Virus record (IMG/VR): IMGVR_UViG_3300028584_000320
Coordinates: 1,001-65,000 of that record
Reading direction: 5' to 3' (one strand)
From: a virus
Length of the DNA: 64,000 nucleotides
In this document: piece by piece, positions 56,853 through 63,474 of the stretch
Numbering within the stretch: position 1 is the first letter of the stretch
Layout: the number at the start of each line of letters is the position of its first letter
Notes under the pieces: generated by a model
Databases searched by the model: none
What the model was told of the DNA's origin: nothing
Seen by the model: the letters and a program-made list of their open reading frames with translations, nothing else
Program-made: the position numbers and the translations under genes

Positions 56853-57065
56853 TTAGCGCAGTCGTGCGATCTCCCGGGCCAAGTACCAGGCTGCTTTTTC
56901 CAGATCCTGGATTTGGTTGCCCTTCTCGTCGGCTCGCCAGATGTATTTCATGGCGTTGCCGAGGTTGAAGTTCATGTGCTCGGTCACCTGGATGCATTCA
57001 ACGCCGCTAGGGTGTGCGTTGTAGTGCGCCGGATGATTGACCTGGTCCTGGGAGATCTCAGCCAC
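56853..57065 (-). CDS. DUF3310 protein (T7 gp1.7-like)
   Basis: VNHPAHY...ECI...FNLGNAMKYIWRA..K...DLEKA.WYL; GTG start at 57065. Confidence 0.85.
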   Translation of the reverse strand: MAEISQDQVNHPAHYNAHPSGVECIQVTEHMNFNLGNAMKYIWRADEKGNQIQDLEKAAWYLAREIARLR

Positions 57066-57402
57066 GTTCCAAAAGGTCCTTGGTGAAGTCGATGATCTCA
57101 GCCGAAGGCTTGACTCGTTCCTGGACGGCCAGGCCCTCAGGACGAGCATTGAACTCGGCTTCGGTCATCTCGCCAAGGAGAACCAGGTTGGTGACGATAA
57201 CGTCAATGACTTCAGGGCTTTCACCCAGCTTCTTGAACATAGTGACCTGCAAAGCCTGTTGGGCTTTGCCCAGCTGGTGCAGGCCGATGTTCTCGTTGTC
57301 GGTGATGATCATGGCATTCTGGGGAATGCCCTGAATGCCGGCGTCGCTGTTGATGATCACATTGCCGGCGACGAGGTAGTAATACTGCTTCAATTCGCTC
57401 AT
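57058..57402 (-). CDS. conserved N4-like hypothetical protein
   Basis: 114-aa ORF, YYLVAGNV...LGKAQQALQ...DV.V.NL..LGEMT..EF. Confidence 0.75.
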   Translation of the reverse strand: MSELKQYYYLVAGNVIINSDAGIQGIPQNAMIITDNENIGLHQLGKAQQALQVTMFKKLGESPEVIDVIVTNLVLLGEMTEAEFNARPEGLAVQERVKPSAEIIDFTKDLLERG

Positions 57403-57421
57403 TTGGTTCTCCAGAGCAGCT

Positions 57422-58169
57422 CTAAGCGGCTGCTAACATTTGGCTGTCGATGATGTTGTAGATGTCGCCTTCACTAGCCCCGTTAGGAATAGTGATGTCT
57501 TGGCTCCAGTCGGGATAGAATATGGACAGTTCTCCGCCCAGCTTGACCTGATCATGGGCAATGTCTGGGTGGTCTTGCCACTGAACAGCACTTACCAGAT
57601 GCTCGTTCAGGTACATTAGAGCCTTGATGTCGTCCTTAACGAGGGCATAGCCGGCGTCATGGATCTGAGCACAAGGTCTGATCATAGTTCGATACGGAGA
57701 GTTCCGCACCTTGATCATGGTCTCGCTCCAGGCCCTGGAGTTTAGAAGACACCAGGATTGTCCAAGAGCGTTACCTGCTGACCTGCCTTCGGCTTCTGCT
57801 TCGAAGGGTGTCTTACTCGTGCCACGAATGACTTGAGCTAGTTTTGGCGTCCTCAGTCGTAGCCCGAAAGCCACAGTCACGTATCCTGTTCTACTAGCCT
57901 CGTCCAGCTTGGCAGAGACCCACTTGTCGCTGACCTCGTACATGGCGTGATAGCGTTCTTCGATCAGCTTGGCTTTCTCCATAGAGAAGCCGCAGTTAGC
58001 CATTAGCGCCTGGTACGTACCTTGGTAGGTAAGAGCAAAAGGTAGGCGCCTTCGATTCCTGCCGAAGTGCGCCCCCTTTCGTCCCAGAGATCTTGTTGAT
58101 CTCGCTGACATTGAACGTAGTGGGAGAGATCTCCTCGATTCCCGCGACGTCTGCTATATTAACTTCCAT
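57422..58169 (-). CDS. DNA polymerase (family A) C-terminal fragment, interrupted by a +1 frameshift at 58037-58040
   Basis: Frame 1 from ATG 58169: MEVNIADVAGIEE...ALRQESKAPTF; frame 2 continues (F)ALTYQG...AQIHDAGY (motifs B and C). Confidence 0.85.
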
Positions 58170-58891
58170 TGAAATCCGTATCCAATTTTCTGGGAATTAC
58201 CGGGGTTCAGCGCGTTGGCGATGGGGCCGCTCGTGAGCTTTCCAAGCGACCTGGCGGCAGCGGTGGGGCTTGGAAAAGTGGCGACGATGGTGCCCGTGGC
58301 TGGGTCTATTTGAGCCACGGGTCGCCGCCTGGGCGCATTGGCTTCGGTGTTTCTGGCCCGCTTTTGTTGGACCAACATAGCCTCAAAGTCTTTGTCGCGC
58401 CTTGTACGGATGGCGTGATTACGTAGGTTGATGGTCAGCCTGGACAACCCCACCCCCATACGTTTTGCCAGCAGCGTCATACTGTGATTGAGCAAAAATT
58501 CTTCCAACAGCCAATCGAGCTCGTTCGCATCAAAGTTCCTCTTTTGGCTCATATTGCCGAGCCTGTAGGCGTGCTTGATGTTCTCAGACTGCGTACACCA
58601 CTCCAAGTTATACAATCGCGGATTTGAGCGGTTTGCGTCGATGTGGTTGACGAAAGGCTTAAACTCCGGATTTGGAATGTAGGCCCCTGCAACAAGTCGA
58701 TGCAGCAGTTTAGCCGTGACTTTGCCGCTCTTGGAGAGATTCACATAGATGTAGCCGTTCTCGTTGAGGGTGTGCTTTAGCGTCGTCCCTTTAATTGTGT
58801 TAGTGACAATACCGTCCTCAGACACAGTGTAGTTCTCAAAGCCCGCTATTTTTCTCAAAGTATTCCTCAATTGGCGTACGGACACCCCCAT
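58154..58891 (-). CDS. HNH homing endonuclease (NUMOD4-HNH-NUMOD1 type) inserted in the polymerase gene
   Basis: YTVSEDG.V; LHRLVA..YIPN....FVNHID.NRSN...NLEWCT.SEN..HA; V.QID..TG..VATFPS...AAR; likely TTG start 58858. Confidence 0.9.
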   Translation of the reverse strand: MGVSVRQLRNTLRKIAGFENYTVSEDGIVTNTIKGTTLKHTLNENGYIYVNLSKSGKVTAKLLHRLVAGAYIPNPEFKPFVNHIDANRSNPRLYNLEWCTQSENIKHAYRLGNMSQKRNFDANELDWLLEEFLLNHSMTLLAKRMGVGLSRLTINLRNHAIRTRRDKDFEAMLVQQKRARNTEANAPRRRPVAQIDPATGTIVATFPSPTAAARSLGKLTSGPIANALNPGNSQKIGYGFQWKLI

Positions 58892-60896
58892 CGGTTACTA
58901 TAAAGTCCCCACTTTTGCACATCAAGATGTTATTGCCTACTTTGACCCGAAAACATCTGTCCTCTGGCTGTGCTTGACGAACCTCTGGCATATGCTCGCT
59001 ATAGTACGCGTAGGCCCTGAGTGAGTGCCCGTCGTACCCATCACTGTAGACCTTTAATTTAGCGGGATCCTTCGTCGTCAGAGCCGAGATCCGGTCTTCG
59101 AGAGATGCGAAATCCAGGCCAACAAACATCCAGCCTGGTGGTGCTGCGAAGCACTTCTTGATCCACTTGGCGTAGAGCGCAGCCTTCTCGGACTTTCCGT
59201 TGGCCGGCAGGTTCTGCAGGTTTGGGTTTGAGCTCGACAGGCGACCACTGATGGTGCCTCCGAGATTGAAGTTGCCAAACAGGTAGTGCCAGCTATCAGG
59301 CCCCTGTACGGCCGCTTCCAGGGCCGGGATGAAGGACGTCAGGATCTTGTTGACCGCGGCGTGGTCACTCATCGCATCCAGGAAGTCGATTATGTCCTGT
59401 TGTGTCGTGTGGTTCCGCAGAGCCCTGATGGTCTCCCCGTCCACCGATGGCTGTTTGTTGTCAGTGTAAGAGATGACCGGCAGGTCGAGCATCTCATAGA
59501 GGAGGCTCTGCAGCTGGGGACCAGAGTTGGGATTGAAGGTGATCTCGTCCCTAACGGTCTTGCTGGTCTTAGCTTCTTCCAGGGTCTCGGTGACCGTGGT
59601 GCGCTTCTTCTTCCACTTGGCATTGCGAGTGGCGACGCTTTTTTCCAGGAGCTTGTAGTTGAAGCGCTGAACCACCTGGCTCCCATGGATAGAGGCCATG
59701 GCTCCGTTGTAGTCAGTCTGTAGGGCCTTTTTGCTTTTGATGACCTGCTTCATGTCGACCGGCATTCCGGTCAGCTGCATCTGGATGATGTCGACTGTGG
59801 CCGGCTGGAATACGTCTCGGTAGACCGACAGCTGGTCATCACGAACCAGGGTGTCCCAGTGCTTGTCGTGGACGAACCAGGTCGAGAGACCGTCAATCAG
59901 ATTGTAGCGGAGCAGGTCAGGCAGAGGGATCTTCCTGATGTCAGGATCGTCACCTAGCAGGGCGTAATTGCCAGAGAACTCCTGGGCCTGCTCCTTGAGG
60001 CTGAGCTTGTTGCCGGCGCAGCTGTTGGTGGCCAGGTAAGTGATTAGCTTGGTGCATTCCCAGCCACCTGGGCGAAGCATGATCGACAGGCCATCCAGGA
60101 GACCCTCGGTGTCGAGGATGTGCTCCATGAAGAGCTGATAAATCAGGACGTAAATGTCGAAGGCGGCATTGTGGTAGATCAGCTTGTTGCGGAACTGCTG
60201 GAAGAAAGCCTTCAGCATGTCTCGCACGATCTTACCGTCTGGCCCCAGATCTACCGGGAACACCACCCCCTCGTGTTGGCTCCAGCAGAGGGTGATTGTG
60301 CCGATGCCCGCTGAGTTGTGCTTGAGGCTGAACGTCTCGATGTCACAGGTCAGGGGCATGTCGCTATCGATAAGCTGGATGAGCCAGTGCTCGATCTCTT
60401 CAGGCGTCTGAGGGTAGGCAGCATACTTGATGATGCTGGTGCCAGGCGCCTCATAGCCACCGGCCCTGTAGGCCTTCATGGCGTCTATGCCCTGGGCGAT
60501 CTTTCCGCGGATCTTGTCTGGATCGTAGAAGATCTGGCGCTGGTTGGGGACGTAGACGACCTTCCAGGGGCCGAACTTGCAATCTAGCACGTAGCCCAGA
60601 TTGGCGTCGGCTTTGCTGACGCCGGCGAGGACCTTGAAATACTCCGAGTCGTTAACAACGATGATCTCGGTGCCCATGTCGATCCAGGTCGGGACAAGCT
60701 CTTCAGTGATGTAGCGCTTGAACTCGGCGACAGGGGTCTTCTTGGTCTCTCCATAGTGGAGATCGAGGATTAGGACCTCGTTAGGGTCCAGGCTGTGGGC
60801 GTCGATATAGGCCTTGCGGATCTCATCCTTCCTGATGGTTTGAACCAGCAGGCAGATCGGATAGGCGTCCTGTTCAGAGAAGGTGAGAAATCGCAT
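58836..60896 (-). CDS. DNA polymerase (family A) N-terminal fragment: UDG-like, 3'-5' exo, motif A
   Basis: TCDIETF, YHNAAFD, YNLID exo motifs; GRLSSSNPNLQN; motif A GLDFASLE; DGHSLRA; start ATG 60896 via TAATG. Confidence 0.92.
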   Translation of the reverse strand: MRFLTFSEQDAYPICLLVQTIRKDEIRKAYIDAHSLDPNEVLILDLHYGETKKTPVAEFKRYITEELVPTWIDMGTEIIVVNDSEYFKVLAGVSKADANLGYVLDCKFGPWKVVYVPNQRQIFYDPDKIRGKIAQGIDAMKAYRAGGYEAPGTSIIKYAAYPQTPEEIEHWLIQLIDSDMPLTCDIETFSLKHNSAGIGTITLCWSQHEGVVFPVDLGPDGKIVRDMLKAFFQQFRNKLIYHNAAFDIYVLIYQLFMEHILDTEGLLDGLSIMLRPGGWECTKLITYLATNSCAGNKLSLKEQAQEFSGNYALLGDDPDIRKIPLPDLLRYNLIDGLSTWFVHDKHWDTLVRDDQLSVYRDVFQPATVDIIQMQLTGMPVDMKQVIKSKKALQTDYNGAMASIHGSQVVQRFNYKLLEKSVATRNAKWKKKRTTVTETLEEAKTSKTVRDEITFNPNSGPQLQSLLYEMLDLPVISYTDNKQPSVDGETIRALRNHTTQQDIIDFLDAMSDHAAVNKILTSFIPALEAAVQGPDSWHYLFGNFNLGGTISGRLSSSNPNLQNLPANGKSEKAALYAKWIKKCFAAPPGWMFVGLDFASLEDRISALTTKDPAKLKVYSDGYDGHSLRAYAYYSEHMPEVRQAQPEDRCFRVKVGNNILMCKSGDFIVTDGGVRTPIEEYFEKNSGL

Positions 60897-61405
60897 TAGT
60901 AAAGTAGCCTCGCACAAGCATAAAACTCAATACGAGGCAGCGTCTTTAGGTACTGCTTCATGGTTCGAGTGTCATGCTGAATGGTGTATGCCGCGTCTCT
61001 TAGCCTTGGAAGAGTCTTGAGATCTTCCAAGGTGTCGACGATGCAGTTGGGAAGCGCATCTCTAATGTCTTGAGTGTCGTTACAAGGCATTAGAAGAGGC
61101 ACCAACATTTGGGATATGAGGTGCCGATCGGTCCAGACCTTCTCGATGTCAGCCAGGTATTCGTCCATAGTATCGACAAGTGAGGGATGAAGGCTGGCTC
61201 GTGTTCTAGTACCTCTGGCCAAGTTCGCAGGAAAGTAGCTCATGCCTTTATAAGCAAAGCCATCATGCGGCTTGTCCGGGTAACACTCCTTATTAGAAGT
61301 GATAGCTTGGTCCTTGATCTTCTCTAGTCTGCGCTCTTCAGCAGCGAAGAGAGATCCTGCTATGCGCTTGATGACCTCATGCGCGTTACTAAGGGCCATG
61401 CCCAT
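60896..61405 (-). CDS. conserved N4-like hypothetical protein (gp38-like)
   Basis: QDIRDALP..V motif, synteny between helicase and polymerase. Confidence 0.75.
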   Translation of the reverse strand: MGMALSNAHEVIKRIAGSLFAAEERRLEKIKDQAITSNKECYPDKPHDGFAYKGMSYFPANLARGTRTRASLHPSLVDTMDEYLADIEKVWTDRHLISQMLVPLLMPCNDTQDIRDALPNCIVDTLEDLKTLPRLRDAAYTIQHDTRTMKQYLKTLPRIEFYACARLLY

Positions 61406-61409
61406 CCTC

Positions 61410-62714
61410 CTATTGGATTATGCCTCCGTACTTATCAGCCAGCTTTCCATAGAAAGCGATGCGTGTTCGGGGGCGAGAGACAGCAACGTACAGCATCCGA
61501 GCCGCTTGGTTTGGATTGTGGCAGTCGCTGATGTTGGCGGCGTCAATGTAGATGGTCTCGGTGGTGCTGCCTTGAGCCTTATAGACTGTGGAGGCATCAC
61601 GTTGGCGCAGATCAGGAACCTTGTTCTTCAAGAAGAAGTAACGGTTCCAGTTAGCTTTGCTCTTGTACCACTTGAGCAGAGACTCGAAGTGGGGACGATC
61701 GACCGGCATAGTGACGTTCTTGAACACCTCGCCCAGAGCGGTGCGTAGGTCGGTGCGTCGAACCACCAGAGAGAACTCGCTGTCGACCTCGAGCAGCTCG
61801 GTTTGGGATGCCTGGCTGAGGATTGTGACTTCCTCTTCGACCTTCAGCATCCGGTCCTTGAACTGGATTGCTGAGCTGCTGACAAGGCGTTCACCGACTT
61901 TGAACTCGCTGGGCAGCTGTCGGACTTCACGGATGAAGTCGTTGTAGGTAACCACCTGGCGGTTGGTGTAGGCGAGGATCCGGCTGTCGTGGTCTTGGGT
62001 GCTGAAGACCTGGGAAATCTCAGCCATCATTTCGTCAGGGGTGAGGTGATCGATGACACCCGGGACAACCTGGATCGGTTGAAAGATCCCTGTCTCCACG
62101 GTGTTCCTGAGCTGCTGGCAGATTGCCATCAGAGCCGGCTGAGCACTGTTTCGCATTGGCTCAGTCAGCACGAAGTGCTTGATGCCGCGGCGGTAGATCG
62201 GCGAGAGCGGCTCGGTAATTGGAGCCATCTGGCAGTGATCGCCGACGTAGACGATCTTGCAGTTGTGGGTGCCCTCCAGGATCGCTGTTTCCAGGGGGCT
62301 GTCGATCATCGAGCACTCGTCGACGAACAGGATCTTTCGTTCGTGGACGACCCAGTTGGTGGTCTTGGTGACCTTGGACTTGCCGGTCTCGTAGTTGTCC
62401 TGGACCTTCAGGTTCATAAAGGAGTGGATGGTCGACGCCGGCCGTCCGGTGGACAGGCTCAGGGCCTCGACAGCCTTGTTGGTGGTGGCTGTCATTTCGA
62501 CGGAGTCGTACTGAGGCGTGATGCCCATCAGTTTGCAAGCTTCATAGTACCGCGGCATGATCTCATCGATCATGTGACCCATCAGGAAGGTCTTGCCGTA
62601 GCCACCTGGCCCGCTGATCACCAGCTCCTTGTCTTCGCTGAAGAGGAAAGAGAAGAACCCTTCTGCAGCCTCGTTCTGCCCCTGGTTCAGGGGAGGCTTG
62701 GGTTGAGCGCTCAT
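61410..62714 (-). CDS. SF1B Dda/RecD-like DNA helicase (N4 gp37-like)
   Basis: SGPGGYGKT, FVDECSM, VGDHCQ, TVYKAQGST, YVAVSR. Confidence 0.93.
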   Translation of the reverse strand: MSAQPKPPLNQGQNEAAEGFFSFLFSEDKELVISGPGGYGKTFLMGHMIDEIMPRYYEACKLMGITPQYDSVEMTATTNKAVEALSLSTGRPASTIHSFMNLKVQDNYETGKSKVTKTTNWVVHERKILFVDECSMIDSPLETAILEGTHNCKIVYVGDHCQMAPITEPLSPIYRRGIKHFVLTEPMRNSAQPALMAICQQLRNTVETGIFQPIQVVPGVIDHLTPDEMMAEISQVFSTQDHDSRILAYTNRQVVTYNDFIREVRQLPSEFKVGERLVSSSAIQFKDRMLKVEEEVTILSQASQTELLEVDSEFSLVVRRTDLRTALGEVFKNVTMPVDRPHFESLLKWYKSKANWNRYFFLKNKVPDLRQRDASTVYKAQGSTTETIYIDAANISDCHNPNQAARMLYVAVSRPRTRIAFYGKLADKYGGIIQ

Positions 62715-63397: not shown

Positions 63398-63474
63398 TGG
63401 CGCACCCACCTGGGTTTGAACCAGGAACAACCGACTTAGAAGGTCGGTGCTCTATCCAATTGAGCTATGGGCAC
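63398..63474 (-). tRNA. tRNA-Arg (anticodon TCT), CCA encoded
   Basis: 77 nt cloverleaf; D-loop AATTGGATA; anticodon arm CCGAC-CTTCTAA-GTCGG; GGTTCAA T-loop; ends GCCA. Confidence 0.92.

Follow-up and report, generated by a model that had tools for sequence, protein, structure and literature searches.

In the published record, a homing endonuclease that brings along a translational recoding signal of its own is known solely from the mobA/gene 60 region of bacteriophage T4. This mobA/gene 39-gene 60 element, with its 50-nt bypass, has been described by Bonocora et al. 2011 (as cited in PMC5009743) and by Manning & Atkins (bioRxiv 10.1101/2022.08.31.505936). According to the latter report, an endonuclease, tails and a bypass that prevents self-nicking come together in this element, and the bypass insert, rather than the flanking polymorphisms, blocks nicking of the carrier genome by MobA; the bypass cassette was termed unique in the same 2022 survey. 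In the nrdA-a/mobE/nrdA-b region of Aeromonas phage Aeh1, an essential gene is likewise divided by an HNH endonuclease gene, and its halves, once translated as separate polypeptides, reassemble, as is proposed herein for another gene; unlike the present case, neither a frame-breaking insert nor recoding is reported for Aeh1 in that account (bioRxiv 10.1101/2022.08.31.505936). With regard to decoding, UUU_Ynn sequences are shift-prone in bacteria even without a stop codon (PMC5009743), and with 70S ribosomes +1 shifting is promoted by a stable hairpin adjoining the E site, an effect that is enhanced by duplex invasion of the E site (PMC6321510).

In the present study, a window of 64,000 nucleotides (positions 1,001 to 65,000 of the IMG/VR virus record IMGVR_UViG_3300028584_000320) was analysed, in which an N4-like (Schitoviridae) family A DNA polymerase gene lies in pieces on the minus strand. 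The best reading of this locus, which we hold with reasonable confidence on the strength of comparative sequence evidence, is a programmed +1 frameshift carried by a mobile homing-endonuclease cassette. The locus resembles T4 mobA/gene 60 in several respects. In both, a free-standing HNH-family endonuclease splits an essential replication gene, to which conserved C- and N-terminal tails are added, and the non-coding bases lie in highly conserved DNA, at codon 44 here and codon 46 in T4. In both, the insert is always found with the endonuclease, some lineages keep the split and the tails and have lost the endonuclease and the insert, and the cassette moves between diverged phages. The two systems differ in the gene and the phage (family A DNA polymerase of N4-like podoviruses here, topoisomerase II of T4-like myoviruses in T4), in the length of the insert (1 nt versus 50 nt in T4 gene 60), in the decoding (a predicted +1 shift on an overlapping codon versus a hop between matched GGA codons), in the stop codon at the take-off site, which is present in T4 gene 60 and absent here, and in the putative stimulator (a 5' hairpin ending at the site versus a take-off stem-loop and the nascent peptide). 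Protection from cleavage has been shown in T4, whereas for the present locus we infer it. Although the window site works on the gene 60 principle, it falls outside the family of gene 60 bypasses.

The proposed site can also be compared with that of prfB (CUU_UGA_C). Both would depend on an obligatory +1 shift for functional protein, with the P-site tRNA re-pairing on an overlapping codon and with an upstream duplex near the E site promoting the shift (SD:anti-SD in prfB, an mRNA hairpin here), and a minority of species have UUU_U as their RF2 shift site. Unlike prfB, the window site (ACC_UUU_UGC) has no in-frame stop, autoregulation or SD at 3-nt spacing, and it lies inside a catalytic motif as part of a mobile element. 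The same slippery tetranucleotide and tRNA are used at other UUU_Y sites, including the argI error site of E. coli, Yersinia YopN-TyeA and influenza A PA-X (UCC_UUU_CGU), to which the site of one lineage described below, L080 (ACG_UUU_CGC), is close. Those sites give minor or alternative products, whereas here the shifted product would be the only functional one. No published description of such a polymerase cassette with a +1 shift was found.

Results

Organization of the polymerase locus

The source genome of the window is an IMG/VR record of 71.8 kb with a CheckV completeness of 98%, and it encodes one PolA only, without a second polymerase. The best named relatives of this polymerase are those of Delftia phage RG-2014 and Pantoea phage G19, and the gene is uninterrupted in both. 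The features of the locus are listed in Table 1.

Table 1. Features of the split polymerase locus, in window coordinates
Feature	Position	Strand	Description
Polymerase part 1	58836..60917	-	Family A; exonuclease domain, motif A, DGYDGH
Part-1 C-terminal tail, last 48 aa	58982-58839	-	Cassette-borne; VRQAQPEDRCFRVKVG...EKNSGL; no counterpart in unsplit polymerases
Free-standing homing endonuclease gene	58154..58891	-	245 aa, NUMOD4 + HNH_3; inserted between motifs A and B
Polymerase part 2, zero-frame segment M1-F44	58038..58169	-	Cassette-borne N-terminal leader, then first half of motif B (RQESKAPTF)
Predicted RNA hairpin	58034..58088	-	21 pairs, loop CAGGAA; 3' arm ends at shift site
Putative shift site UUU_U	58037..58040	-	Phe codon 58040-58038 + surplus base 58037
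Polymerase part 2, +1-frame segment A45-A248 + stop	57422..58036	-	Rest of motif B (ALTYQG), AEGRSAGN, motif C (QIHDA)
Zero-frame stop TAA	57996..57998	-	Would terminate the 57-aa product of non-shifting ribosomes

The true start of part 1 is probably ATG 60896. Its homology to unsplit polymerases stops at ...SEHMPEV, and the cassette-borne tail lies beyond this point. The zero-frame ORF of part 2 (58169..57996, minus strand) consists of MEVNIADVAGIEEISPTTFNVSEINKISGTKGGALRQESKAPTF, then CSYLPRYVPGANG, then the stop; from ATG 58169 the frame runs to ...RQESKAPTF and stops 13 codons on. The +1 frame reads (RRRLPF)ALTYQGTYQ..., that is, ALTYQG and 198 further residues before a stop at 57424-57422. 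The local DNA is GCG CCT ACC TTT T GCT CTT ACC TAC CAA GGT, with TTTT at 58040-58037, and the codon following the Phe codon is UGC in the zero frame and, past the surplus base, GCU (Ala45) in the +1 frame. When TTTT is counted as one step, a single protein of 248 aa (P0123) results from one shift, at F44. Residues 1-244 of P0123 align to an uninterrupted part-2 protein (P0076) at 66% identity without a gap at the junction, and the APTFALTYQG of the joined product is identical in Delftia phage RG-2014. The joined product scored 34.9 bits against Pfam DNA_pol_A (cut-off 34.3), versus 28.1 bits for the ORF from ATG 58111. These results agree with a sequence-only reading of the window, which had placed the break of the frame from ATG 58169 inside motif B with the remainder in the +1 frame, had attributed it to one extra T in TTTT (58040-58037), and had dismissed the ORF from 58111 as lacking the R...K of motif B: the same reading of the frames was obtained, one shift yields a 248-aa protein collinear with P0076, and the score of that ORF falls under the Pfam cut-off. 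The predicted tryptic peptides across the site are APTFALTYQGTYQALMANCGFSMEK for the shifted product and APTFCSYLPR for the zero-frame product.

Several other routes to the +1 segment were considered and rejected. Separate initiation is not compatible with L080, in which no ATG, GTG or TTG occurs between the upstream stop and FALTYQG, nor with L074, in which the counterpart of ATG 58111 runs into a stop; moreover, the O helix of the resulting protein would have neither its R nor its K. A -2 shift was likewise dismissed, as a second Phe would then be inserted and the R-K-F-Y spacing spoiled. A phage suppressor or four-base-decoding tRNA was rejected on the basis of the tRNA content, since the sole tRNA gene in the 71.8-kb genome is tRNA-Arg (anticodon TCT; 63398-63474, minus strand).

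Recurrence of the surplus base in diverged lineages

A surplus pyrimidine after the Phe codon, together with the frame break, was observed in seven lineages: the window, L074, L075, L076, L077, L080 and L081/L082. The surplus base is TTT-T in six lineages and TTT-C in one (L080), and it is never a purine. L074, a contig from an unrelated run with the same layout and the sequence ACC TTT T GCT, was reached by a search with the 57-aa zero-frame ORF, which retrieved a 57-aa protein. A degenerate DNA pattern search yielded three more metagenome contigs (L075, L076 and L077). Among 985 matches in a search for part-2-sized proteins, the small number of gene calls that were truncated (190-224 aa) pointed to L080 (ACG TTT C GCT) and to L081/L082 (ACG TTT T GCC, in an AT-rich genome); every truncated gene call found in this search of 5.8 billion proteins lay at an endonuclease-bearing locus. 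The other carrier lineages were drawn from JGI, ENA and Logan assemblies of independent samples.

The site is flanked by synonymous differences between the seven lineages, and the identities among the window, L074, L077 and L080 are 52-73% in the C-part and 46-63% in the polymerase core. In all seven lineages the +1 frame is open for ~200 codons, with AEGR(S/T)AGN and the motif C HDA, and the zero-frame extension past the site differs between lineages and is not conserved. The sequence-only reading had suggested conservation in relatives as a check, and the break does recur in all six lineages other than the window. When IMG/VR was scanned by pattern for either form of the site (TTTT or TTTC), only the window's own record was returned. 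No isolate with the cassette was found (a megablast against GenBank phages gave distant polymerase matches only, and a tblastn of the 44-aa leader against GenBank phages gave nothing), and no close cultured relative was found for P0085 or P0003. Judged from these comparisons, the surplus base is almost certainly real and must be recoded.

RNA hairpin and codon context

The predicted hairpin has a 12-bp, GC-rich upper stem that ends directly 5' of the E-site codon ACC, and a lower stem in which CC-UUUU-GC(U) pairs with (G)G-CGAAAGG; its 3' arm comprises the Ala-Pro-Thr-Phe codons. In the segment from -48 to +7, the minimum free energies of the seven lineages were -27.3 (window), -25.3, -23.0, -20.3, -20.3, -15.9 and -8.3 kcal/mol, compared with -8.5 ± 3.9 in controls (n=96), the best unsplit control reaching -17.1. 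Stable hairpins were thus predicted in six of the seven 1-nt lineages, and that of L077 is weak (-8.3) despite its surplus T. For the window, z was -4.66, and none of 200 shuffles was as stable. In an alignment of five sequences, 82.9% of the cells pair, versus at most 56% with a slid partner, and both sides are altered in three pairs, e.g. Arg CGG/Ser UCG to AGA/UCU; with five sequences only, the shuffle control for covariation was not significant (110/500). Similar hairpins without a surplus base, at -19.3 and -17.9 kcal/mol, are predicted in L125 and L136, two endonuclease-free split loci of the ALTYDG clade, which may be descendants that lost the cassette.

A purine tract is present within 50 nt upstream in all seven 1-nt lineages, with anti-SD duplexes of -9.3 to -12.6 kcal/mol versus -4.3 ± 1.9 in 96 controls. 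This tract is the 5' arm of the hairpin. prfB-like SD stimulation was therefore rejected: the tract lies ~30 nt upstream, no SD is found at 3-nt spacing, and the purines are accounted for by the hairpin. The zero-frame A-site codon, UGC, is an ordinary sense codon and not a stop, and it is not known to be decoded slowly in the host. Phe is encoded by TTC in 76% of the cases in the genome, yet TTT is used at the shift site; at this site the controls show TTT:TTC of 52:50.

The homing endonuclease cassette and its linkage to the frame break

The start of the endonuclease gene overlaps the end of polymerase part 1, and the start codon of part 2 sits within the conserved C-terminal YGFQWK codons of the endonuclease gene (58154-58169; CAATGGAA). 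The same arrangement is found in L074 and L080, and because the start codon is embedded alike in all three, it is suggested that translation of part 2 is coupled to that of the endonuclease ORF. In the carrier lineages with upstream DNA, a NUMOD4/HNH gene always splits the polymerase, ~100 nt upstream of the break, and the tails and leaders are conserved at the protein level among the carriers. The split at this position, with conserved tail and leader, is widespread, being found in dozens of protein clusters of 243-256 aa. An IMG/VR search with the endonuclease protein of the window returned one weak relative only. The sequence-only reading had recognized the break and had missed this cassette, which explains the surplus base.

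The loci, which comprised two IMG/VR samples (69 and 80 loci) and the carrier loci, were classified by script on two criteria, the frame of motif B and its distance from DGYDGH. The distance from DGYDGH to motif B is 132 nt in unsplit genes and 330-520 nt in genes split without an endonuclease. In all fetched loci (~150), each broken motif B is separated from the upstream DGYDGH by at least 870 nt that include an HNH gene, and a broken motif B was found in none of ~140 endonuclease-free loci, unsplit or split, at distances of 520 nt or less. Five further split loci without a recognised HNH gene have an intact motif B and contain small ORFs.

The gap between the polymerase halves is variable in content. 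One to six ORFs of 30-202 aa without a Pfam match occupy it in L166, L167, L168, L169 and the P0008 locus, an unrelated 149-aa ORF occupies it in L136, and two different HNH endonuclease genes lie in tandem in L079 (1808-3314); small ORFs are frequent at the split point, which forms a hotspot for them. In N4-like polymerases, another split site, independent of the first, is located just before GYDGH (P0022, P0030, P0052 and similar proteins), with a leader of the type ...VG(N/S)(T/S). In Gamaleyavirus coliphages this site holds an HNH gene (L164, Escherichia phage SP5M, 850-4124). In coliphage SP5M, the HNH gene lies at this different split site (before GYDGH) and motif B is intact; therefore, that cassette must protect its target otherwise, and the rule linking break and endonuclease is confined to the cassette family and the split site of the window.

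An intron or an intein was not supported as the form of the insertion. Rfam gave no group I intron match at E<=1 in 57000-61500, the endonuclease gene is flanked by merely ~90 nt and ~20 nt of non-ORF sequence, and stops part the frames. The tail and the leader together comprise only ~60 aa, the Cys lacks conservation and Val occupies the +1 position. The termini of both parts were nonetheless seen to resemble intein block A and the C-terminal His-Asn, with no nucleophile at +1: the part-1 tail starts with RC(F/Y)(R/K)V.VG...GD.I...DG....IE.Y, and the part-2 leader ends in (F/H)N before Val (window 58839-58982 and 58110-58169; L007, L017, L042, L054 and L077). Lineages without the endonuclease do not conserve the tail Cys. 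What is left of a degenerate intein may thus be seen in the tail and the leader, which now would serve as a clasp between the two halves.

Mosaic origin of the segment with the shift site

The window and L074 are 46% identical in the polymerase core, 52% in the C-part, 63% in the endonuclease and 68% in the leader. Relative to L004, the closest unsplit relative of the window, the identity of part 2 is 98% over residues 86-165, 68% over residues 45-85, 55% over residues 25-44 and 21% over residues 1-24. Residues 25-44 of the window are 80% identical to L080 and 85% identical to L074. The boundary of the mosaic is found 3' of the shift site, and the surplus base falls within the imported segment. 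This pattern is the one expected from homing with co-conversion, in which the leader, the hairpin and the shift site would have been imported along with the endonuclease.

Other inserts at the same spot

Other endonuclease-bearing lineages have inserts of 5 or 6 nt no more than 15 nt from the same spot, each opening with an in-frame stop codon. The 6-nt inserts are CCT [TAGCTT] ACN TTT (L041/L042, L078 and L079) and CCG [TGAACA] ACA TTC (L106), and the 5-nt insert is ACT [TAGCT] TAT (L054). All of the 1-, 5- and 6-nt inserts are located in those 15-nt DNA windows that are most conserved in the region. Those 6-nt-insert lineages that were folded lack the upstream hairpin, and a 6-nt pattern scan of IMG/VR returned already known loci only. 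To judge from their sequences, the 5- and 6-nt inserts would need ribosomal hops of +5 or +6, for which re-pairing from CCU to CUU or from ACU to GCU is plausible and from CCG to ACA is poor.

Discussion

Herein, we propose that the cassette comprises a C-terminal tail for part 1, the NUMOD4/HNH gene, a new start and leader for part 2, the hairpin and one surplus pyrimidine, and that full-length part 2 (248 aa) would be produced by a programmed +1 ribosomal frameshift. The peptidyl-tRNA-Phe on the P-site UUU would re-pair on the overlapping UUU (UUC in L080), and GCU would be read next; the surplus base is always a pyrimidine, and therefore tRNA-Phe has a cognate codon in the +1 frame. The upstream hairpin may refold behind the ribosome up to the E-site codon, where it could invade the E site and aid the shift, a stimulatory role suggested by analogy with the hairpins studied on 70S ribosomes (PMC6321510). 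Parts 1 and 2 would then assemble as two polypeptides via the tail and the leader. The sequence-only reading had offered a programmed +1 shift with re-pairing of tRNA-Phe as one of two options, and this option is now favored by the conservation of the break, the lineage-specific hairpin and the intact downstream frame.

The other option of that reading, a homopolymer error of sequencing or assembly over a true TTT, had been considered at least as likely, and a single extra base in a 4-nt run of an assembled metagenomic contig would fit it. This option is rejected on account of the conservation of the surplus base across seven diverged lineages, which stem from independent samples and assemblies and one of which has C: the extra base recurs in six other lineages (JGI, ENA and Logan assemblies, other samples), the TTTC of L080 is no homopolymer extension, and the extra base strictly co-occurs with the endonuclease and the hairpin. 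We regard the probability of an error as close to nil. Similarly, the fact that the genome is a metagenome assembly with no known isolate would allow for a gene recently inactivated by mutation in a defective or helper-dependent phage. This is very improbable, given a break kept in seven lineages despite C-part identities of 52-73%, ~200 open codons with all catalytic motifs, a dedicated hairpin that co-evolves with the break, and a genome at 98% CheckV completeness in which no second polymerase is found. More serious is the possibility that the surplus base is real and cassette-borne and is removed in the RNA by hairpin-driven transcriptional slippage. The nascent hairpin 5' of CCUUUU would melt the upstream RNA:DNA hybrid, and the transcript would realign forward by one base to give mRNAs with UUU (UUC in L080) that are translated normally. 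The GC-rich stem-loop directly 5' of the U run has a terminator-like geometry, and in the Roseiflexus IS630 a 5'-adjacent stem-loop leads to transcripts minus one base at T5C5 (PMC5009743). Slippage is to be counted as a rival since a one-U deletion would restore the frame in L080 as well (ACG UUC GCU). However, the run is merely U4 (U3 in L080), compared with a 10-nt motif of two runs in the precedent; it is lengthened by an ACT codon in none of the seven lineages, versus ACT in 23 of 102 controls; a simple intrinsic-terminator scan did not flag the site; and the surplus base is always a pyrimidine, preserving the cognate Phe codon in the +1 frame. Moreover, the stop-initiated, heteropolymeric 5- and 6-nt inserts of the sister cassettes cannot be removed by slippage, and therefore the ribosome is indicated. 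Slippage thus appears unlikely, and on these sequence features we hold with considerable confidence that the recoding is ribosomal rather than transcriptional.

With respect to purpose, we propose that the surplus base would disrupt the recognition or cleavage site of the endonuclease in the most conserved DNA of the gene; because of this disruption, the carrier genome would be immune, and cassette-free relatives would be cut and converted. We lean toward this self-protection function, which is drawn from the co-occurrence and the T4 analogy, and it is the most likely one because insert and endonuclease strictly co-occur, three insert types cluster, and the motif is restored in lineages that lost the cassette. 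Alternatively, the +1 shift may be real and purely regulatory, setting a low polymerase level or yielding a functional 57-aa product, with no protection of a target. A lower yield of part 2 is an inevitable consequence of any shift site, and the T4 bypass, which is ~50% efficient, is suspected by its authors to have further functions (bioRxiv 10.1101/2022.08.31.505936). Against regulation, the break is absent without an HNH gene at this split site, the split lineages lacking HNH have an uninterrupted motif B, three unrelated insert types share one 15-nt stretch of the most conserved DNA, and the zero-frame extension is not conserved between lineages. We assign the regulatory explanation a low probability, and self-protection of the endonuclease target is a better-supported purpose than throttling of the polymerase.

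Taken together, the cassettes of N4-like phages might represent three separate solutions to the destruction of a target in the invariant motif-B DNA, with the protein left unchanged and the inserts skipped by the ribosome; on this joint reading our judgement is evenly balanced. The three solutions would be a 1-nt insert with a hairpin-assisted +1 shift at UUU_Y and, with the same even balance for and against, stop-opening inserts of 5 nt and of 6 nt that need short hops.

Conclusions

Polymerases of this type would be tagged as truncated or as pseudogenes by gene callers and annotators, to which the present locus and its relatives offer a 57-aa ORF and ORFs of 190-229 aa, and quality filters may drop valid phage genomes as erroneous. 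The 1-, 5- and 6-nt inserts, the cassettes with and without a hairpin, and the lineages that have lost the cassette form a natural series for experiments. If the proposed reading is true, the locus provides a natural 5' refolding hairpin as a +1 stimulator, which until now has been shown with designed or engineered reporters only. The locus and its relatives would show the logic of T4 mobA/gene 60 with a different gene, phage family and decoding mechanism, and the T4 gene 60 bypass would then be one case of a general strategy of immunity by recoding among selfish nucleases.
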